Both the position numbers and the translations under genes were made by a program. Under the pieces are notes generated by a model that worked only from the letters and a program-made list of their open reading frames with translations, made no database searches and was not told the DNA's origin. From Octopus vulgaris (lineage: Eukaryota), in assembly GCA_951406725.2 (NCBI GenBank), contig OX597820.1, positions 56,792,001-56,856,000 of the forward strand: a stretch of 64,000 nucleotides of DNA, in the 5' to 3' direction. Positions 6,609-63,242 of this stretch are shown here, one piece after another. How positions within the stretch are numbered: the stretch's first letter is position 1; the number at the start of each line of letters is the position of its first letter.

Positions 6609-7889
6609 TTAAGTTGTCCGTAAAGTTCTGAGCGTTTTTCAATATGCAAAATGGCATATCAATAATTGACCTTCCAATAAATTTTAGTCAATGAAATAAT
6701 TTCCATTATTATTAATGACATTTGCCCATCTATCAGGAAATTTAAATATTGCATCAGCAGAAAATTTGACTGGCTTTGAAGGAAAAAGTCATTTAGATGC
6801 ATCTAAATCGTTAAATGTTTTTCCTTGCGATGAGTTCTGTAGACAAAAACTAGTGGTAGTCGGATGGCACAATATCAGGAGAATATGGTGGATGGGGTAA
6901 GAGATCCCAGCGAAGTTCATGTAATTTTGTCCGGGTAGCCAAAGACACATGTGGTCGGGCATTGTCTTGTTGGGACACTACTCCTTTCCTGTTAGTAATT
7001 TCCGGTCCTGATTCTTTGATTTTTGGGTTCGAATAAGCCAGTTGACGACAGTACACATCACAATTAATGGTCTGCTGTTGTGGGAGAAGCTCATAATAAA
7101 TAACGCCTTTATGATCCCACCAAACACAAAGCATAGTGTTTTGACATGAATATCCGTCTTTGGTTGTTGTTTTGGGGGATTCTTACTCAAACTCTATGAT
7201 CTTTTTTTGCACTAAATTTTCATACACAATCTAGCTTTCATACACAATCCATTTTTCATTATTTGGTTTCAAATAAGGCATGCTTTCATTCCATTTCAAA
7301 AGAATATCACAAACGAGTTAACGGTCCAAGCAATTATTTTCTGAGAGTTTGTGAGGGATTCATCCATTATAGCGAGAAATGTATCCTAGCTTCATTAGGT
7401 GTTCATGAGCTGTACTTTTAGAAACTTCCAACTCCTCTGCCAGTTCTCTAGTCTTGATTTTAAAGTTTTCTTTGAATTTTGCCTTCAAAACATCTTCATC
7501 CAATTTCGATGGTCTTCCACTGCGACTGTTATCTTCAAAGTTAAACTCTCCAGCTTTAAATTTTGCAAACTACCTTTGAACACTTGATTCGCCTTCAGCC
7601 TCATCACCATAAACTTCAGAAATGCTTTTGCAAATCATTGCAATATTTTCTCCTTTTTTAAGAAAGCAAAGCATTGCAACGCGTATATGAAAGCTTTTGT
7701 TATCCATTTCAAATATCAATAAAGGGTAACCAGAATGAAAGCTAAATCTATTTTCAGTCAGGAACAAAGAAGAAATGCACTACCACTTCAAGCAATGTCA
7801 AAGTTTTAACTGTGTTACGTTTCAGGTCTGTTCAACGAAGCATTAAAAGATTTAGCTTAAAAGCGATCAGAACTTTCCGGACAACTTAA
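6609..7889 (-). mobile_element. Full-length mariner transposon (DD34D), inactivated
   Basis: 26-bp TIRs ttaagttgtccg(t/g)aaagttctga(g/t)cg at 6609-6634 and 7864-7889; TA on both flanks; length 1281 bp. Confidence 0.95.
6684..7707 (-). pseudogene. Mariner transposase pseudogene
   Basis: MDNKSFHIR..., MLCVWWDHKGVIYYELL, QQDNARPH, HPPYSPDIVPSDYH and ...GNYFID* with frameshifts and stops. Confidence 0.92.
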
Positions 7890-11213: not shown

Positions 11214-11279
<66 letters not shown>

Positions 11280-12378
11280 GACGGACGTGATGTCAGTTCG
11301 GCTCCGAAGGTAATCGTTTATTTTGACTATCTATAGCCCATATTTTGTGTACATTTTTGTAAATAAGGTGTGTAAGGCACCCAACTTTCGTTTGAGTGCT
11401 TTTCCAAGGGAGGAATTCGCCCCTAGGGGCAGTTTTAACCCTATTTAATTTGTGTAATTTCCTTTTCGACATTTTGAAAATGTCGAGAAATTGTATTGTA
11501 GAACGATGGTCGCGTTCCTCTATTGACCATCATTTTCCTAGTCTGGAAACGCTATGAGAAAAAAAGAACTTATGCACGCAAAGTGCAAACATAAATGATT
11601 TTGGAATAAACGCTGCAACCACTTGTAGTAACATCCCTGTCACCACCACCACCTCTAACAAGAACAACAAAGAGACTACTACTGTTACCACCACCACCAA
11701 CACCACCACCATCAGCATCGACAACAGCAACAAATACAAAACAAAGGTCGCAACGCCAAGCACCGTCAACACCACCAGTGAGTCCACCACCAACACCGAC
11801 AACAACACCATGGCAGCATCTGCTACTAAAACTGCTATCCCTGCTAAAGACATCGCCACCAATAACAATACCAACATCACCATCACCGCCACCAAAGACC
11901 GTGCCGTCAATGCTACTAATATCACTAACACCACCGCCGTCACCAAGAACGACAATAACAACAACAACGACAACGACAACAACAATTCTATTCAACCACT
12001 GCTCACTCCATCACCAACAAGTGAAAAAATAACAACGACAACCAAACGAAATGCCGAAATTTGCGCTAATGCAGGACCAAATTACGCAGACAATTTTCCA
12101 CTCCTTACTAGTTGCATAATCAGCAACCACAAATCTACAACCCACACCCCTGCCATCAACACCAACACCACCGGCAGTAACAACAATAACAAAACAACAA
12201 CAAACTTCGCCGAGGCGATAAAAGAAAAAGTAACAAGAGTTTCGTTTACTGCACAACAAATAAAAGATTGCAGAAACCTTATCACCAATGAAAACGGCAA
12301 AATACTCTTACACATACCACAACACATACTGAATGAGGAAAAAAGAGAAAACCATTGTTTATAAAATAACAAATAAAA

Positions 12379-12554
12379 CAACTAAAAGTCCAGAAAAGGC
12401 AAGCACGGACAAAATAGAAAAGTGCCTACGCCCCATCTGGGGATACAAGGATTATGTGACTTGGGCGCCCAAGTCACATAATCCTTGTATCCCCAGATGG
12501 GGCGTAGGCACTTTTCTATTTTGTCCGTGCTTGCCTTTTCTGGACTTTTAGTTG
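12379..12554. repeat. Perfect 176-bp palindrome (88-bp arms, no spacer)
   Basis: Centre ttgggc|gcccaa at 12466/12467; the same peptide is read on both strands in the ORF track (12333+ and 12382-). Confidence 0.98.
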
Positions 12555-13205
12555 GTGGTTTTTCAGAATGAAGAGTTGGCGAAGAAATTCGCAACGATAA
12601 CCCTTCATTCTGATGAACTAACGATGACACCGAGTTACCTTGGCCAGAAGGTGACGAAGGTTATTATCAATAATGTCTCCCAAGTAACAACCACACTGTG
12701 GATAACATCCGCCATAACATCCGAAATGGAGGACTTAAACATCCTAGATATCGCTGTTTCGAAAAACAAGGACTGGCTGGGAAAGAGAATGGAGTTTCTC
12801 TTCCACATAAGTCAAGACGACATCAACAAAATTCCCACCCACGTACATCTTGCGGATGGCCGCAAGTTGTACGTAGTAGTCGAGGGCAGAAGGCCACGAT
12901 GCTATACATGTGGCAGTGAGGCACACCTCAAAAAGGAGTGCAAATCTGCCGCTAAATTACAACAACAACAACAGCCACAGGAAAAACCACAAAAGCCAGC
13001 ATTATTGCCCACACCACAATATGGACGGCTAATCAAGAAGCTGTATGCAGAAATGCATGAAAAACAACAAATAACAAGCCAACCCAACCAAACAACACCA
13101 ACACAAGCGCCAAGAACAGAATCATCACCACCAACAACAACTAAACCAATTCCAACACCGAGAATAACAACGAAGAAGACAAGCACCAAGGATGTAGGAT
13201 AGACA

Positions 13206-13382
13206 ATATATTTCTTTATTGCCCACAAGGGGCTAAACATAGAGGGGACAAACAAAGACAGACAAAGGGATTAAGTCAATTACATCGTCCCCAGTGCGTA
13301 ACTGGTACTTTATTTATCGACCCCGAAAGGATGAAAGGCAAAGTCGACCTCGGCGGAATTTGAACTCAGAACGTAACAGCAG
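13206..13382 (-). mobile_element. 5'-truncated SINE family B inserted in LINE ORF1
   Basis: Matches the 9037-9261 copy. Confidence 0.9.
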
Positions 13383-13878
13383 GCGAACGATGAAAGTTCG
13401 ACAGAATGGCAAATAGCCACAGGGGGTAAAAGAAAAAGATAAAAAAAAACAAACAAGAAATCGCAACCAAAGCAGGGAGATACCTGAACCCTGAAAACTC
13501 CATACACAACCAAACAAGCACCAACACCACAAAAACACACACAGTGCTATCAGCGATAGATACCAAAGACTCCAAACTAATGGAGTACATCACAGGCTAC
13601 ACAAACATTTGTGAAGATGACTTTAAAAATAGCAATCATCCACGCACTACACCACCCAAACACATCAAAATACTACACATCACACAAACTCAACACCACA
13701 AACTCAAAGCCCTCTTCCCAAATGTTGTAGGGGGTTTCCAAAAATATCTCTCCCAGAAACTTTATAAAAACCTCCTCCAAGACACATCAAAGAACGAGGA
13801 AGCCAAAACTTTCGACACAAGTAAGTAACTCTCTGTACTTTCCTTTTTGTGTTTTAAAGCACACTCCCCAATAGAATC

Positions 13879-16800
13879 ATGGTCAAAATTGGTTGTGTGA
13901 ATGCGCGTGGCTTGGGGTCTCCTTGGAAACAAGGATACCTCCTAAATGACATCAAGTCACATGATTTGGGAATCATAGCCATAAGTGAGACCAGACTCCA
14001 CGAGCCACGGGCCCTAAAGTCCATGTTTGGCGGACAGTTTAACATTTATTTTGATCCCTGTCTGCCGAGGATGGGCGGTAGTGGCACCGCGGTACTTTTT
14101 CACAAGAGCCTGAATCTCGAAGTCAAGACGATATTCGTAGACCCGGAGGGTAGACTGATCGTTCTGGATGTCGACGGCAACAATGGGTGCGCTTTTCGAC
14201 TCGTATCAGTCTACGCACCGCCCTTAACAGGTCGGCCGGATTTCTTTCGACGTCTAGAAGTATTCCTGGGAACGTCTCGTCCTTTACTTTTAGTGGGGGA
14301 TTGGAATGCTACCTTGGACACACATCTAGACTATGTGGGGAGAGACAAAAACAGAAGGGGATGCAAATGCCTCAGAGACCTGCTCAGACGATTCCAACTG
14401 TCTGACAGGTACCGACTCGACCACCCAAATGCACCAACGTGGACATGGAGCAACCGCAGTGGGTCGTCGAGATCGTATCTAGATAGGATACTGTGTAGGA
14501 CAGTAGACAAGGATAACTTAGGATGTCCACAATTCCACACAGTCAGCTACACGGATCACAAATTCGTGACGTGTACGCTAGACTTAGATAAGGCACATAG
14601 ACAGGGTCCTGGGTACTGGAAACTGAACGCATCATTCCCGTCCAGACAAGTTTTCAGAGACAGAATCAACACGTTAGTAAAAAGGGCTTTAACGGAGCCA
14701 TTGTCAACAACAAATGGTGGTTCGCCCTCAAGAGAGCAGTAAAAGCGGAAGCAATTAGATATATATTTCTTTACTACTCACAAGGGGCTAAACATAGAGG
14801 GGGACAAACAAAGAAGCAATTAGATATAGCAAGGCACTAGCCGTAGATAGAAATAGAGTAGAGGATGAGTTAGTTAAGAAGTTAGAAGAGGCAATCACAT
14901 CCGACGTTTTAGCGGCGAGGTTGGCCCTTGAACAACACTTCAACGCCAAACACGAAGGGTGTGCTGTCAGGGCTAGGATGCGTGCTCTAAGGATGGAAGG
15001 TGTTGGAGCCGCGAGGGAGGCCCGGGTGGCGGAGGCGCAGCAGGGCAACAAAGCCACCATTCGGTCTCTGGTAGATGAACAGGGGTGCGAATTGCTCGAG
15101 CCCAGCAAGATGTGCGAGACATTTCAGCGGCACTTTGCCCGACTGTACGGGACGAGTGGTGAGCGTGAACGCAGGGTGGACTTCAGTGCCTAACTGCACA
15201 GCCTACCACGACTCTCGGCAAGAGAGGCAGAGTGCTGCGAAGGTGCCATCACGGCGGCGGATGTGCGGGACGCGATGGCAGAATGCTCGAGAGACAAATC
15301 GCCGGGTTTGGATGGTCTGCCCTACGAGTTTTACAATTGTATGCCAGACTTGTTTGGAGACGTCTTGGCAGCGGTATACTGCAACTGGCAGCAAAACGGG
15401 AGCATACCCGGTTTTGTGAGTCGAGGAGCTGTAACTCTGCTGAAGAAAGATCCAAAAAAGGGGAACATTATAGATAACTTTAGACCAATCACTCTGCTCA
15501 ATGCAGACCTGAAAATTTTGACAAAGGTGTTAGCCAAGAGGTTGGCGCTTGTCATCGAGAAACTGGTCGACAACGCACAAACGTGTGCCGTGCCGGGCCG
15601 GAGCATCCATGACAACCTCCATCTGATGCGCTACATCATAGACAGGGTAGTTAACGAACCTGGCATGGGTGGGGCCCTGATCAACTTGGATCAATCGAAA
15701 GCCTTCGATAGGGTAGACCATCGATACTTGGAGGCAGTCCTGAGAGCGGCTGGTTTCGGTCCCGTCTTCCGCGGCTGGATAGCTGCCTTGTACAGAGGCA
15801 TCCGTTCGGTAATTCGCGTAAATGGACATCTATCGAGACCTTTCGACATTGCACGTTCGGTCCGTCAGGGATGCCCCCTCTCGGCGCTTCTATACGTATT
15901 GACTCTTGAGCCACTACTGCGGAAGCTGACGACTCTGAGGGGCATCCCGCGAGAATTGGGATGCGGGACGAGCGTGTCTGCATACGCGGACGACGTCACC
16001 GTCATAGTGTCAAGCCACGAGCACATCGAGCGGGTCGGTGAGACACTGGAAGACTACGAAGCGGTGACAGGAGCAAAAATCAACCGGGAAAAGTCAGTGG
16101 GCTTGCGGCTCGGCACCTGGAGAAGCAAACCCATATCGTCCACCAGTACCTCCGTCGTGGGACGCTGGACAGACGGCCCGGTTAAGTTGCTCGGGGTCTG
16201 GTTCGGTCCGGACCTCCAAATGGAGAAGAACTGGAACGAGATAACGAGTAGGGTGGTCACTCTCGCCCAGCAATGGGCCGAGAGGAAACTGTCCCTAAAA
16301 GGTCGGGCAGAGGTGGCCAACGCGTACATCGCGTCCATCATCTACTACCGCCTGACCGTCGTACCTTGTCCCGACCCTACCATCACCAAACTAGAACGCA
16401 TTCTCTTCCGCTTCTTGTGGAAAGGATGCGTCCCGATGGTCAGGCGATCCATTTGCTGTCAACACCCGTTAAAAGGAGGGCTGGGCATGCCGTGGTTGAT
16501 GATGCGCAGACACGCGCTGAGACTGCGACATCTCAGGCTCTATGTAGACGACGGTGAACAGGTGTGGTCACCGTTTGTGAGGCACGCTTTCCCGCAGCTC
16601 GTCTCCATGACCGAACTGCAGTCGTGGATCAAAAAGAGGCCGAGGAAGGGCGAATGGCACCGCGAGTGTCGCGTTGCTCTCAAGCAACTCTGCCGTCCCG
16701 GGTCGACCTTGAGTGACTTCAACACAACCAAAGCATTCTATAGGGGATTAGTGGAGGGGAGGTACGACGACGATCTTGGGGCAAACCTGGACGTCGACGA

Positions 16801-17368
16801 GGAATACCTGACCCGCCTGTTTCAAACGACTTTCGGCCCGGGGCCTATGGATAACTTCCAGAGATCCCTGGCCTGGCGGTGCTACCGAGAAGCGCTACCC
16901 GTTCGGGATAAGCTCTATAGGCATGGCTCGAGAAACACGGGGCCGACCTGCCCGAGATGCGGGCAGAGTGACGAAACCGCTCTGCACGCAATCGTGCAGT
17001 GTCCAGCAATTTCCGACCGGTGGAATTATGTCGAACGACTGCTGTCACGTGTGGGACGTGTCGGTTTATCAGCCGAGTCTATCGTTAATATCGTCACGCC
17101 TCCTTCCTTCAAACGGGAAGGAAGAGCTATTTTTATCATACTTGTGGCTATGGCGAAAGAATGTATCTGGTGGACGCGCCTGAAAGGATTAGAGACAAAC
17201 ACTTTCCTCTGTGGTCAATCTCTCATCAACTTCTTCAAGTATCACTTGAAGAGGAAAGTGAGAGTAGAGAGGCAAGTTTTGTCTAGTGAATGTTTTAAAA
17301 AAAGATGGGTGAATGTAGCAAGGATGGCACGTATGAATGAGGAAGCCACCTTGACTATGATTCTATGA
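13879..17368 (+). pseudogene. LINE ORF2: apurinic-like endonuclease, reverse transcriptase and C-terminal zinc finger
   Basis: APE motifs NARG, SETR, GDWN, SYLDRI and TDH; RT motifs KSPGLDG, FRPITLLNAD, DQSKAFDRV, RQGCPLS and YADD; CPRC...H...C; frameshift near 14695, SINE at 14764, stop at 15191-15193; the last 701 codons are open. Confidence 0.93.
14764..14812 (-). mobile_element. 49-bp 3' stub of SINE family B with 16-bp TSD inside ORF2
   Basis: gaagcaattagatata at 14748-14763 and 14813-14828. Confidence 0.92.
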
Positions 17369-17693
17369 ACCATAAAAATTAATACAGAGAGTTGCTTATT
17401 TGCAAAAAAAAAAAAAAGAAATATAACGTGACTTCATTGACCGAGGTTACCGTGGTCTTTTCCGTAGGCTTTTCTTTCCACGGGTAAACCTCACCTGTCC
17501 TCCCCTTTACACTTCATATTGACATTTCTGTGATAACGATCCCTATTGATCAATTCCCCCCCTTTTTTGTCCTCTTTCTTTCCTTTTACGATCCCTTTTG
17601 ATCGAAACCCCCCTTTTTTTTACCCCAAAAGAAAAGCTCTACCTTGTAATTTGTTCTATCTGTGTGCAGCCCTGTGTGGCTAATAAAGAAACA

Positions 17694-19419: not shown

Positions 19420-19487
19420 CGAAATTTAGCGCCAAATAGACGCCTGATTTTTCGAGAAATCAGGCGTCTATTTAGCGCTAAATTTCG
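19420..19487. repeat. 68-bp near-perfect palindrome
   Basis: cgaaatttagcgccaaatagacgcctgattttTC|GAgaaatcaggcgtctatttagcgctaaatttcg, 2 mismatches. Confidence 0.95.
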
Positions 19488-21742: not shown

Positions 21743-22695
21743 TAGTTGGAATTTACAAGAAGAAAATAAAAGACGAAGATAGGTGTGTAAACAACAAGCA
21801 GGTGTATTAGTTTAACACTTGGGAAGATGAGAAAGTGTTTCATGTTTCGAGCCTACGCTCTTCATTAGAGAGGAACACGAGAAAATAAACAGAGAGAGAA
21901 TAAAAAAAGTGCTTTAGGGGCTAGCAATCGATCATGGCGATGGCTGGACAGAGGTAGTCAGACAGGAGAGCTAGGAAGAAAGGGAGATAATAAAATAATG
22001 ATGATCCCAAAGTGAAGGTGCGCGTGCGTGGGAGAGATGGTGGGGTTGGAATGTGTAGCGGTGGGATAGAGGGGGTAACGATGAAGGGAGTGGGTGGAAG
22101 GGAGAACGTGCGTAGGAGTGAAGAGAGAAAGTAGGTGTAAGAGGAAAAGAGGAGAGAAGAGGACAGTTGAGTCCATGTGGCGCAAAGGAACGCAGAGAGA
22201 AGAATAAATTCTGTTCACAGCGAAGACGGGAGACCGGATGGCCCCTGTGCTGAACACAGGTAGGCGTTGTAAAGAATAACCGTTTGAGCGGAAATGGCGC
22301 GAGATCGGGGTGTCGATGCTGAGTCAGCAAGCGGCGTCCCGTTTGACCTATGTACAGAGAAGGACAGACAGAGTAGGAAATGCAGTAAATGACGTTGCTA
22401 GAAGTGTAGATGAAGGAGTCAGTGATATGATAGGGACGATGATGGGTGCCTGTGAGGATGGTGGTGTGGGAGGAGTAGGGGCAAGTGCAGTACCGTGAGC
22501 GGGAACAGGGGAACGAGCCGGGTTGAGAGGTGGGGTTAGGGAAGAAACTGTGCACCAAGAGGTCACGTAGGTTGTGGGCACGTTTGGAGGGGTCGGACTG
22601 AATTCGCCGGAAGGCTCGGAGAATGATGCGTTGGAGAAGCAAGGTGGAGGGGTGGTAGGTGAGGGGAAACAGGAAACAAGTAACGATGTGGCTGG

Positions 22696-22731
<36 letters not shown>

Positions 22732-23058
22732 AGATACACGGTCCACAGAACGGGTTCTGGCAAGGGCGGTGTGCATAGTGGTGAAGGGATATCCACGAAG
22801 TATGAAGTGGCGAGCCATGAGTTGAGACTGAGTCTCAAAGTCATGGTTGTCACTGCAGAGCCTGCGTAGGCGGAAAAATTGGGAATAGGGGATGATGAGC
22901 TTGGTGTGTTTAGGGTGGGGGGAGGAGGAGAAGTTGAGGTATGAGTATGAGTCTGTGTGTTTGTAGTAGATGAAGGTGGTGAGAGTGGAGTGATGATTGC
23001 TGACCGAAATGTCGAGAAAAGCGACGCAAGTGTTGGAAATAATGCAGGAGAATTCGAG
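21742..23058 (-). pseudogene. Penelope-like element 3' part: RT thumb, GIY-YIG endonuclease and terminal repeat with degenerate HHR
   Basis: LEFSC...VAFLDISV...[33 protein letters not shown] and SSNVIYCISYSVCPSLYIGQTGRRL; ctaatga-a-gagc-gtag-gctc-gaaac at 21836-21872 (-). Confidence 0.88.
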
Positions 23059-23119
23059 ATATATGTATATACATTATATGTATATAGACATATAATGTAT
23101 ATATATACATATATATATA

Positions 23120-32175: not shown

Positions 32176-32464
32176 GTACGTATGTATGTCTCTTCTGTTT
32201 TTTAATTGTTATAAATCTTCCACTGAGGAGCGAGCCGGTTTCCAACAAAGACACAAGGCTCCATATTTAGGATGTAGTTAACACAGACAAATTCACTTTT
32301 GGAACTTGAGAAAAGACTTGCATATTTTTACTGTTCCACTCACAGATTGGACTTGTAATGTTCAAATCAGCCGGTTAATTTCTCTTTCTGAAATCCCAGT
32401 TTATTCAGATTCTCCTTTAAGCATTTACTAACAAAACCTAGTGCTCCAATTATAATTTTGCTTA

Positions 32465-33300
32465 GTTTGGGGGCCTATTCTTGTTCTCATGGCCACTCCC
32501 GAGAACTGATGGTAAACATCACACGTGAACGAGAAGCAGTTAAATGAGAAGACAAGTTCAGCCAGACGAAGGAGTGTGGATGTGTCAGGTTGGGGGTTGG
32601 GTCGAAGGTCAAGGAAATGCTGGAGTGCACGCAGCCCCTCGTGGGGAGAGATCACCGTGTATAGACTCTTGAGGTCAAGAGTGAAGAGAAGATTAGAGGG
32701 ACCAGGAGGGAAGGACAAAGAATTGAAAAAACGAAGAGCATAGTTGGTATCATGGATGTGAGAGGAGAGGGAAGCCACTAGAGGAGAAAGAACACGGTCA
32801 AGATATCTGGAGATGAGTTCGGTGGGGCAGTTGCAGGCGGAGTCGATTGGGCGGTCAGGGTTGTTAGGTTTGTTAGGATTTTGGGGAGGAACTAAATTGC
32901 GGACAATGAGGTTACAGGCGGTGTTGGCAGACGGGAGCAGGAGATGAGGTCATGGACAGTGGAGGACACAGTCTGTTGGTAGCTGGGATTGGGGTTGGAG
33001 GGCAGAGGGTAGTAGAAGGTGGTGTCTTGAAGTTGGCGGAGAGCTTCTGTTTTGTAGAGGTCTGCGCGCCACACCACCACTGCTCCACCCTTGTCGGCCG
33101 GTTTTATGATAATGTCCTTGCGGCGTCGGAGACATCAAAGGGCCGAGAATTCGGCTGGGGAGATGTTCAGATGTCGGGGACGCTTGGAAAAGTCAAACCA
33201 GTCCATAGCACGCTGGCAGACGCTCACAAGAAGATCGACTGCTTGGAATTGGCCAGGAGTCGGCGTCCGCTGGGATGATCAGCGGCCCAGGTCGGTGAAT
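32465..33300 (-). pseudogene. Penelope-like element RT, N-terminal part
   Basis: IIKPADKGGAVVVW, PNNPDRPI..ACNCPTELIS, LFTLDLKSLYTVI, NCFSF..YHQFSGVAMRTRIGP. Confidence 0.9.
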
Positions 33301-39862: not shown

Positions 39863-41076
39863 TCAGGTTGTCAAGAAAGATATAGCGGCTTTTAACCTTT
39901 AAATTCAGGTGCACATATCTCGGCTCAAACAAAACTTTATTAATCGAAATAAACACCATCAGAATCAACACACTTTTGCCAATGTGAAGCAAGTTTATTT
40001 ATGCCAGTAGTGTAAAAATCATGCGTTCTGGTGGCGATGAAGTCGTTGAAGGCGTGTTTAGTATCGCCTTGGTTTTTGAAGCATTTCTCACGCAGGAAGT
40101 TGTCGAGATGCTTGAAAAAGTGGTAGTCGGTAGGCGAGAGGTCTGGTGAGTATGGCGGATGAGGCAGAGTTTCCCAGCCCAATTCGTTCAACTTTTGCAG
40201 GGCGTTGGTCCTTTTCTATTGACCATTGCTGGCTGTTGGAGTTTCTTATGCATTTCATATATTTGCTGACAGTACTTCGCCGTAATTGTTTCCAAAAAGC
40301 TGTGATAGATGAGACCGGCCGCAGACCACCAAATAGTCACCATGACCTTCTTTTGATGCAATTTTGGCTTCTGGAAGTCCCGTGGAGCTTCGTTGGCGTT
40401 CAGCCACTGAGCTGAGCGTCACCGGTTGTCGTAAAGAATCCACTTTTCATCGCAAGTCACAATCCGGCAGAGAAACAGGTCATTCTTGTTGCGTAAAAAA
40501 AGAGAAGACGACACTTCAAAACGGGGTTTCTATTTTTTTTTTTGTTGTCTTTCAATTCATGCGGCACCCATTTTATCAAGTTTTTTTTTATTTTTCAAAT
40601 CTCTTTCAAGTGGTTGGAAATTGTCGTATACGTTACGTCTAATTCAGAAGCAAGCTCTCGAACAGTTGTGAGTGGAATGGCTTCGTCTAAGGCTCTTAGT
40701 TGATCGTTGTCAACATCCGATGGCCGACCACTACGCTTATCATCTTCAAGACTCCTGTTACCGCTACGAAATTTCTGGAACCGCCATTGTGCTATACGTT
40801 CATTAGTGGTTCCTGGGCCTAACGCATCGTTGATATCGCGAGTTTGAATTGAAATGAGAGAAATTGTGCCAATTTGCTTTTTGTCCATGTTGTATTCAAC
40901 GTTCCGGAAAAATGGCCTAATTATTCAAAAAGAAAAGAGAGTAGCACGATTAGACAGAGCGAAAGACGGGCTTTAAAATGATATATAAAGTCAAAGTAAT
41001 GTAACGAAAATTAATTTTAAATACATCATTTAAAACCAAAATGAAAAATTCCGCAAGAACTTTCTTGACAACCTAA
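39863..41076 (-). mobile_element. Mariner transposon, Hsmar1/cecropia-like, internally deleted
   Basis: TIRs t(c/t)aggttgtcaagaaag...gcgg at 39863-39888 and 41051-41076, with TA flanks. Confidence 0.93.
39940..40888 (-). pseudogene. Mariner transposase pseudogene
   Basis: MDKKQI...SLEDDKRSGRPSDVDNDQLRA and LPHPPYSPDLSPTDYHFFKHLDNFL...WQKCVDSDGVYFD*. Confidence 0.92.
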
Positions 41077-59849: not shown

Positions 59850-61640
59850 AATGCAAGGTTAAAGCCAAAAAGTTCCAAACTTGTTCAAATTTCAGCAGCC
59901 AAACTCTTAGAAGGCAGACCACTAGGAGTTGTTGCTGATTATCCCATAGCAGATTATTATATAATCATCAGTGACCTAGTTCTTGTTTCGTTATCGTGTG
60001 AGTCCTGGTTGTCCAGTAAACCTGAACTTTGGTTTTGAGATCTCAGCCCTTCGTTGCCCACCAATGGCATTTGTACGGGTAACGTTCTGTTCAGGTCATA
60101 CGCAATGTAACGTTCAAAATCTTGACAACCGTGTCCAGTAACCAGGGTGGTTCATCTCCAAAATTTCTAGCCAAAAATTTGGTGATTCATGTTTCAAACA
60201 AGTGTTTTTCCCAGTTTCGGATCTCGTACCATGTGGTCAGTTGGGGTCTGATACTGCATCAGTTTAACTGTAAAGCATTTGATGCTAATTATAGACTTTC
60301 AGTCGAACTCCTTTTTTCGAGTAAAAGCCTCAAACATCTTCAGATAATTAAAAATTTTTGCAACCGATTATTATATTCCTTTTGTGTTTCCTTTTTCTTT
60401 TGTTATTCAGTTCTACAAAACTCTTTTCTAAGCACTAATAATGGAGCTATGTCCATTTCAAAACTTCTAATCTAATCTTGACCTTTAAAGAAGAATCTTT
60501 TATATCAATCAATATCAATTTTAGTGTTTTTCTTGATAAATGGAATTTCACAAACCTATATCAGAGAAATTGCTTTGAAGCCTAGACAAAAAGAAGCTTA
60601 ATTTTGAAGAATTTCAATTCAGAATTGTCTGTTTTTGACCATTTTCTGGGTCCATTGACCATTCCTATACAGACGGCTGCTTCAGTAACACATTCGAATT
60701 CTTTTAGCAGTCCATTGACTTTCAATGCAATTTTAATGGGTTTGCCTTCGCAACATTTCCCATTACTAACAAACATCTCTCGGATGTGGATATTTGCCCA
60801 ATTTTTCTTTTAAAATTATATTTTTATTACTCTGCTGATATTGTCCATCCGTATTTTGATTTAATGTCAAAATTCAACCTTTCTAAAAATGAACATTTTA
60901 TGGCAAAAATGGCATTTTATATTTCTCCTTGGATAATTTTAATTTGTATGATTTTTGCATTTATGGCAATTTAACCATAAATGCAAAAATCCATAAATGC
61001 AATTTTTGGTTGGATATTTTATTCTTCCTCTGCACAACATCAATATCTGAATTTCCAGACAGAAGCTTTCCTCCTGGAAAATTCGAAGAGCTTTCAGAGG
61101 CCCTCTAAACTGCCAAAGCAATTTTCGCTGCCTTTTATAGTACCAGATCTCATTCTTTCAAAAATGACAGTTAAACACTTTTTTATAGATGTGTTCGTGA
61201 TTACTCTGTCTCTAATCATATAACACGTAACTCTGGATCCACAATCTATAGATTTAAGTTTTACTTCTGTCACAAAATCAGCAATACTCAAATTATAGTC
61301 TTTCGAAATCAGTAATAATTATACATCTCAGTATTTCTTTTCTCCTCGAAAAGTGCCGTCAACTTTTCTATGATTACAAAAATGAATATTTCAAATAATC
61401 TTTCAGCAAAATCAAAGTATTAGAAAATTTAATATTTTACTATGAGTTCCATTGATTAAATATATTAACTTGATTTCTTTACTTGCAGTTTTGTTGAGAT
61501 TGAAATAAGTATCCACTCTGATCTCAAAATCTTTCCAAAAATCTTTAATGCTCATAGCAGTGCGTAAGAACTTGCTTTCCTTTGCAAAATAATCTGAACT
61601 TATTTAACTAGATATTCCACCAGTCGTTGTCATATTATAA
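59850..61640 (-). pseudogene. Gypsy (Mag-type) LTR retrotransposon remnant: gag, zinc knuckles, protease and integrase C-terminus
   Basis: WKDFEIRVDTYF..., SIADFVTE..C..MIRDRV, CHKCKNH..P..KCHFCHK, PIKIALKVNGLLKEFECVTEAAVCI (degenerate DTGA) and ARNFGDEPPW; LTRs not resolved. Confidence 0.7.
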
Positions 61641-62424: not shown

Positions 62425-62725
62425 TGGTTTCACAATTTGGCACACGGTCAATTTCGTGGGAAGCAGTAAGTAGATTACATCGACCTTAGTTTCCAGCTGG
62501 TACTTATTTTAACGACCACGAAAGTATGAAAGACAAAGTCGATCTCGTCAGAATTTGAACTCAGAACATGGCGACGGATGAAATGCCGTTAAGCCTTTTT
62601 GTCCGGGCGCTAAGGATTCTGTCATTTCATCGCCTTGTAATCGCAATTAATATTAAGAAAAAGATGAAAACCATTAGCAACCTGAGAAAAATGCTTAGCG
62701 GTATTTTGTCCGTCTTTATGTTCGA
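62425..62725. mobile_element. Two SINE family B pieces in head-to-head orientation
   Basis: 62425-62637 on minus and about 62660-62725 on plus. Confidence 0.7.
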
Positions 62726-62727
62726 TA

Positions 62728-63242
62728 CGCGGCATGGGTACAATTTCAGCGATTTGCGAAGAGCAGAATGGCAGCTGCCAACAGATAATCCAGTTTCATG
62801 AGACAAACGTCGCACAGATTTCCCGGGATTGCGAAGAATTCGTTGACAGATATCTTCCACAACATCATCAGCAAGGCGGGTACGTCGGCGAACGTGTTTC
62901 TTGACCTCAACTGAGCCCGTCTTCCAAAACTTTTTAATCAGATCATTAATCGCTTACTTTGTTAGCGGTGGTACATTTGGATATTCGCTCTTAAAATCGG
63001 TAACGCAATTGTCAAAAGAGTAAATCCATCGCCCGATGATAAAACGTCCTGGATCTAAAATAAGATTCCACAATAAATGAACGTTGTTGTACTGACAACA
63101 CCATTACGACTCTAGAAGAAATCTAGAATGAATGCGTTACACTTGTAAAAGGCTAAAATCAATTTGGCATAGCGAGCCAATCAGAGAGAGCCAATATTTT
63201 GACAGTTAATCAATCGAGTCGATTTTTAAATTGAACACTCTA
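62728..63242 (-). mobile_element. 5' fragment of a Tc1/mariner-superfamily element with DUF4817-type HTH N-terminus
   Basis: MVLSVQQRSFIVESYF...LIKKFWKTGSV...RNPGKSVRRLSHETGLS...ALRKSLKLYP; terminal TA|TAGAGTGTTCAATTTAAAA. Confidence 0.75.

Follow-up and report, generated by a model that had tools for sequence, protein, structure and literature searches.

The closest described counterparts of the locus reported here are template-switch mutations. According to the published comparison of human and chimpanzee, types 1-4-3-2 and 3-2-1-4 make up 31% of the high-confidence template-switch events (PMC5453318). In great apes, the copied fragments are reported to have a median length of 12 nt and a maximum of 128 nt, and 65% of the events lengthen the sequence (PMC7954356). 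A study of orientation reversals describes a peak at distance 0, often no need for homology, and an occurrence in pairs <400 bp apart, three of which were amplified and sequenced (10.1101/2020.03.06.980458). A second relevant process is snap-back SD-MMEJ, a repair outcome described as a deletion beside an insertion that forms a new, longer inverted repeat with its flank (PMC5728401). A third is Mu killer, reported as a proven and expressed locus in which a long hairpin is processed by plant siRNA and DNA-methylation pathways and acts on an active target (10.1101/2020.01.09.900282).

We analyzed a 64-kb stretch of Octopus vulgaris DNA (hereafter, the window), in which a perfect palindrome interrupts the first open reading frame of a LINE. 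The locus resembles type 3-2-1-4 events, as these are described in the sources above (PMC5453318; PMC7954356; 10.1101/2020.03.06.980458), in holding an inverted copy of adjacent upstream sequence that makes a single inverted repeat. It also shares with them a downstream return to forward synthesis, a net gain in length, and zero spacer. Unlike the great ape events, it is read from protein homologs rather than from an ancestral nucleotide sequence, and its host is an invertebrate. With snap-back SD-MMEJ it shares the deletion beside an insertion that joins its flank in a new, longer inverted repeat, as far as that process is set out in PMC5728401; a short central primer repeat and microhomology at the return junction may be further points of likeness. 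In contrast to SD-MMEJ products, however, the insertion is long and leaves no residual loop. Our literature search on mechanisms and host met no report on this locus, although the search was not built to prove absence.

Results

Structure of the palindrome

The interval 12379–12554 is its own exact reverse complement, with a length of 176 nt, a spacer of 0 nt, and no mismatch. This bears out the perfect, spacerless 88 + 88 palindrome claimed in the preliminary description. The arms occupy 12379–12466 and 12467–12554 (88 nt each), and beyond their ends pairing adds at most one chance match. The left arm (+ strand) is native ORF1 coding sequence, specifying helix A and strand 2 in the first of the RRM-type domains. 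The right arm (− strand) is an exact inverted copy of the left arm that is foreign to ORF1, carries a TAG at 12549–12551, and appears to replace about 24 native nucleotides. The left-arm peptide, the TAG, and the in-frame resumption of ORF1 at 12555 are all as first described.

The palindrome lies far above chance level. When the scan was confined to arms of at least 11 nt that are not 2-periodic and to spacers of at most 50 nt, the window held 14 exact inverted repeats, and the next-longest arm after the palindrome was 17 nt. In a mismatch-tolerant scan the palindrome reached a hairpin score of 88, whereas none of five block-shuffled versions of the window held a hairpin scoring 16 or more. 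Folded as RNA, the interval 12340–12640 has an energy of −202 kcal/mol (z = −26.9), and 0 of 100 shuffles folded as well. Among the best 25 of the 199 pairs from a broad inverted-repeat scan, all except the palindrome lie at or near microsatellite tracts, as judged by position. At 60950–60991 lies an exact inverted repeat whose arms measure 17 nt and whose loop measures 8 nt.

A second spacerless palindrome not made of microsatellite sequence lies outside the LINE, at 19420–19487. It has 34-nt arms with two mismatched pairs (at 19433 and 19451) and scores 28, and here too five shuffles gave no score of 16 or more. No second copy of it was found in the window. This structure is either an older fold-back scar or a piece of a small DNA element. 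Because it is a spacerless palindrome in a state of decay, structures of such shape exist in this genome.

The host retrotransposon

The 176-nt palindrome lies in a full-length non-LTR retrotransposon of the L1/Tx1 type, at about 11280–17693 (+ strand), with an AATAAA near its 3′ end. Both ends of the element are intact, and a 5′ UTR is present. The element sits inside a (TATC)n tract that flanks its 5′ end at 11215–11279 and resumes from about 17694. When the window was compared with itself, neither the LINE nor either palindrome arm turned up a second time.

The domain content of both reading frames is that of a LINE. ORF1 (11558–13828, + strand; start codon not fixed) has a Thr/Asn-rich N-terminus, two RRM-type domains, and a CCHC zinc knuckle that is a weak Pfam match (zf-CCHC, E = 0.0015, under the curated cut-off). 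ORF2 (13879–17368, + strand) encodes an APE-type endonuclease, a reverse transcriptase, and a C-terminal zinc-binding domain, with Pfam matches above cut-offs to PF03372, PF00078, and PF13966 (zf-RVT). Among solved structures, the best match to ORF2 is LINE-1 ORF2p (E about 1e-42), followed by R2 (1e-22). For ORF1, we modeled the homolog P0009 from an alignment of 29 sequences (pLDDT 82.8), and this model matches tandem-RRM proteins and structures. Thus Pfam detects just the weak knuckle in the ORF1 of the window, whereas the homolog model matches tandem RRMs clearly. The 129 ORF1-like proteins that we collected form a family whose members have a pair of RRM-type domains and a single CCHC knuckle (for example P0005, P0009, and P0010).

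ORF1 is broken by frameshifts near 12340 and 13440, by the palindrome, and by a SINE-like insert. The first of these frameshifts, in an A-run and followed by a stop at 12362–12364, lies upstream of the palindrome. ORF2 carries a frameshift near 14694, a SINE-like insert, and a stop at 15191–15193. The insert in ORF1 (13195–13388) is a dispersed repeat, of which the window has three other copies at 90–94% identity. This SINE-like repeat and the load of microsatellites are in keeping with an octopus genome. The insert in ORF2 (14764–14812) is a truncated member of the same repeat, bounded by a perfect 16-nt target-site duplication (14748–14763 and 14813–14828). Two inserts of one SINE-like family thus lie within a single LINE copy whose divergence is only about 0.5%, which suggests very recent and dense SINE activity. 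All three frameshifts of the element fall at homopolymer or two-base runs; they are natural slippage or consensus errors, which look alike here. The damage described at the outset needs a correction in degree. The copy is only lightly decayed, with three frameshifts, two SINE-like inserts, and a single point nonsense codon.

Microsatellite targeting is known in Tx1 families, including Kibi at (TC)n and Koshi at (TTC)n (PMC4494074). Like Kibi and Koshi as described in that source, the host element has two ORFs, an ORF2 with APE, RT, and zinc-finger regions, and a microsatellite at both ends. It differs from them in that its tract is (TATC)n. The host family may thus possibly target a tetranucleotide repeat, by analogy with these families and to judge from a single copy.

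The window also contains remnants of DNA transposons: a mariner-type partial DDE domain at 6850–7182 (− strand; E 1e-18), a Mos1-type HTH at 40595–40924 (− strand), and another HTH fragment at 62627–62953 (− strand). Two open frames, at 21971–23073 and 32428–32949 (both − strand), gave no Pfam match at E 0.01; to the eye they resemble the reverse transcriptase and GIY-YIG regions of Penelope-like elements.

Native sequence and its replacement

Several comparisons identify the left arm as native, as had been proposed. The left-arm peptide is identical to the closest homolog, P0004, at 16 of 28 residues, and the stretch downstream of the palindrome is identical at 33 of 56. In a strand log-odds model trained on the other ORF1 windows themselves, the left arm scores +12.5 bits as ORF1 sense strand and the right arm −14.6, while all 21 of those other windows are positive. 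The right-arm peptide reaches a best score of 30 against 129 homologs, compared with 172 against itself. The reverse arrangement, a native right arm and an inserted left arm, is ruled out by the strand log-odds and the homolog scores.

To learn what the right arm replaced, as the preliminary description had recommended, we aligned the locus to relatives at the protein level. A full HMMER scan with the ORF1 read-through as query (TAG entered as X) returned the 129 relatives. Of these, 23 align at the downstream junction and extend far enough upstream, and 14 of them align to the left arm as well, with a score of at least 35. Each of the 14 spans the distance from the Trp (ending at 12464) to the Val (starting at 12555) with exactly 8 residues, against 30 in the window, and MAFFT on the same 14 homologs places one 22-residue gap at the palindrome site. 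The nine homologs left out for weak upstream alignment (score <35) gave 1, 1, 1, 4, 8, 12, 26, 61, and −2 residues; the three with 1 residue are a more distant group.

The contrast between 8 and 30 residues thus points to a right arm that is a local inverted copy, with about 90 nt gained and about 24 nt lost. As read from the homologs, about 24 native nucleotides have given way to about 90, for a net change of +66 with the frame kept. The proposal that a fold-back or template-switch copy replaced native sequence is in this respect supported, with some 8 codons gone and 30 in their place. An insertion that cost no native sequence is ruled out, since the homologs carry 8 residues at the site and the Gly of the motif found there is gone. 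The closest homolog that spans the site is just 54% identical, so that switch points and microhomologies are unreadable at the level of single bases.

The lost residues correspond to residues 140–147 of the P0009 model, which form the loop after the strand E134–139 and part of the strand E145–150. The palindrome truncates ORF1 and, on this model, breaks its first RRM-type domain, which loses a loop and half a strand. That the frame was kept has a chance of one in three, and the TAG cancels the effect.

Word-based protein searches with the ORF1 read-through retrieved 2 of 219 candidates near its length, 0 of 515 longer ones, and 0 of 4 shorter ones, and none has the right-arm peptide. These negatives are uninformative about the presence of the locus elsewhere, because no close family member turned up in the same searches either.

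Age of the event

With frames corrected, on the assumption of the extra frameshift near 13440 that is taken from the homolog P0006, a single one of the element's 1786 codons is a nonsense codon. The resulting estimate of divergence is 0.46–0.64%, with a 95% range of 0.01–3.6% across four transition models. At these point estimates, the probability of zero substitutions in 176 nt is 0.44–0.32, and it is 0.32 when averaged over uncertainty under the last model. A recent event had been argued from the perfection of the arms. However, zero mismatches are this probable even if the palindrome is as old as the insertion, and perfect arms therefore do not place the event after insertion of the element. 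The perfect 16-nt target-site duplication of the second insert fits a young copy. Palindromes are reported to become less stable with longer and more similar arms and with a shorter or absent spacer (PMC7999016), and this instability weakly favors a young age.

Discussion

A probable template switch in one copy of the element

We consider the palindrome to be, with good probability, a copy-specific template-switch scar without function in a disabled LINE copy. The sequence runs as native ORF1 to about 12465, then as the 88 nt just before, copied in inverted orientation, and again as native ORF1 at 12555. Such an arrangement is likely to reflect a single template switch at the DNA level that produced both the deletion and the inverted copy. 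The inserted fragment is the reverse complement of its neighbor, and forward synthesis resumes downstream with 8 codons skipped, as in type 3-2-1-4. The copied length of about 80–88 nt lies inside the reported size range, near its top (maximum 128). The combination of a deletion with an insertion templated in inverted orientation by the flank is also a feature of SD-MMEJ.

The course of events may be pictured as follows. A polymerase on the + strand would stall, or meet a break, near the foot of a native hairpin at 12558, make a U-turn at the codons of a conserved G-x-K motif, and copy backward for about 80–88 nt on its own strand or on the opposite one. Forward synthesis would then be rejoined at 12555, perhaps by way of a 3- to 4-nt microhomology. 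In the four-point model this event would be of type 3-2-1-4, and a mirror-image event on the other strand would give an identical product. The setting could be a replication fork, snap-back repair of the polymerase-theta type, or second-strand synthesis at integration, which would be indistinguishable from one sequence.

The hairpin invoked here is an imperfect inverted repeat native to the element, at 12558–12618, with 20-nt arms (85%) and a 21-nt loop, its foot 3 nt past the return junction. Both of its arms encode residues common to P0004. Within the 6.4-kb element, four loci, this one included, form DNA hairpins at least this stable (17 of 1522 windows). It is a plausible candidate for the stall or break site, the link having been seen post hoc.

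The residues at the junctions give hints of how the switch may have been primed. Lys +3 and Leu +8 match P0004 in register, and they are found in just 4 of 14 and 2 of 14 homologs, respectively. At the protein level this register might reflect priming by a short stem and a 3- to 4-nt microhomology. The central codons of the window, at +1 and +2, read Ala-Pro, in contrast to the Gly that 13 of 14 homologs carry at +1. This Ala-Pro center is unexplained by a simple intrastrand fold-back around a preserved loop.

The state of the stem bears on the level at which the event took place. None of its 47 adenosines is mismatched, from which we infer that the palindrome did not pass through ADAR-edited RNA and arose at the DNA level in this LINE copy. 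An error of first-strand reverse transcription is rejected by reasoning, in that the template it needs has not yet been made when the cDNA reaches 12555. The palindrome is likely without function, in a copy that is broken elsewhere too, and would most likely drift neutrally until the hairpin is deleted or decays.

Alternative explanations

An artefact of library or assembly keeps its earlier rank as the main alternative, but we regard it as unlikely. It would be a fold-back chimera from amplification or end repair that was written into the consensus or, in a milder form, a real imperfect inverted repeat homogenized by polishing. Whole-genome amplification is reported to yield palindromic chimeras, and inverted duplications entered the gorilla Y assembly (PMC6218980). 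Like these chimeras, as that source describes them, the locus is a perfect local inverted repeat able to enter assemblies; unlike them, it is one short event whose second junction restores direction, and it is the single case in 64 kb. An artefact needs two new junctions 88 nt apart together with the 24-nt loss, and the same element then resumes cleanly for 5 kb. The perfection of the arms would suit a chimera, but it is also expected at the age of the element (P 0.32–0.44). Similarly, no protein among those searched carries the right-arm peptide, but that says little when a close family member is likewise missing from those searches. The location of all three frameshifts at homopolymer or two-base runs is compatible with an imperfect consensus. 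On the other side, the decayed palindrome at 19420–19487 indicates that such structures occur in the genome. The palindrome is thus probably a real feature, of a known mutational kind.

A hairpin-capped DNA end that was opened off-center is less probable still. Here a hAT or RAG/Transib-type transposase excising at 12466, or a nuclease, would leave a capped end, and off-center opening followed by end-joining would leave one side with a very long palindromic (P-type) addition and the other with a small deletion. Such an end explains a spacerless center without a priming loop, and the window does contain DNA transposon remnants. However, these are mariner-type and not hAT, and hAT and mariner-type elements differ in hairpin excision chemistry. 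Moreover, we noticed no transposon end or target-site remnant at the palindrome's center, and 88 nt far exceeds the usual excision footprints. Tam3-derived inverted duplications, such as niv-525, are a possible precedent, although no paper listed by our literature search contained that term.

Slightly more remote still is an inherited feature that arose in a source element and spread in trans within a nonautonomous subfamily. In favor of it, the host element is full-length with both ends intact. But the palindrome breaks ORF1, and L1-type elements favor their own proteins, a preference established for mammalian L1. A perfect 88-bp RNA stem should also have gathered A-to-G changes, against the 0 of 47 mismatched adenosines seen here. 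Finally, the right-arm peptide is absent from the 129 HMMER relatives, and among short proteins none of the 4 candidates scored.

A functional silencer is a more doubtful proposition again. The copy's own 5′ promoter would drive its transcription, and small RNAs derived from the 88-bp hairpin would act in trans to silence the LINE family. The predicted RNA hairpin is very stable and sits in a full-length element with a 5′ UTR, and there are precedents. In maize, Mu killer is reported to silence MuDR through a transposon inverted duplication (10.1101/2020.01.09.900282), and template switches are reported to have made new miRNA hairpins in primates (PMC10710096). Like Mu killer as described, the palindrome is a partial inverted duplication of a transposon that is able to give a hairpin transcript (10.1101/2020.01.09.900282). 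Unlike Mu killer, its stem is 88 bp, an active target was not found, and its host probably has no endo-siRNA arm, to go by the report that DICER2 and siAGO have been lost in Mollusca (PMC11114477). The stem (88 bp, with a forced loop of 4 nt) misfits the described preference of pri-miRNA processing for about 35 bp and a loop of at least 10 nt. There are 0 Rfam matches in the window at the gathering score. A close active target family was not found, with the best relatives at 54–62% protein identity, in protein collections that cover animal repeats poorly. Trans-silencing of the LINE family by the palindrome hairpin appears unlikely. Extensive cephalopod RNA editing is mentioned in PMC9115989, in the main text of which "Tx1" has 0 occurrences. 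Editing of such a stem by ADAR is plausible, as one site among very many.

The least probable reading of all is that one template switch made a "LINE killer," a hairpin that represses its family through Dicer1, Drosha, piRNAs, or ADAR hyper-editing.

Biological meaning

As a clean and unusually long case of a mutation type already known, located in an invertebrate repeat, the palindrome is of modest importance. It illustrates that one event can yield a perfect 88-bp RNA stem. If it proves to be supported by reads and polymorphic, it could serve as a marker for the germ-line survival time of such a spacerless palindrome. If small RNAs or editing were shown together with trans-repression, the locus would be an animal counterpart to Mu killer and of far greater importance. 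It would then mean that a locus silencing transposons had been born in one step, in a lineage that is reported to be without the endo-siRNA pathway.
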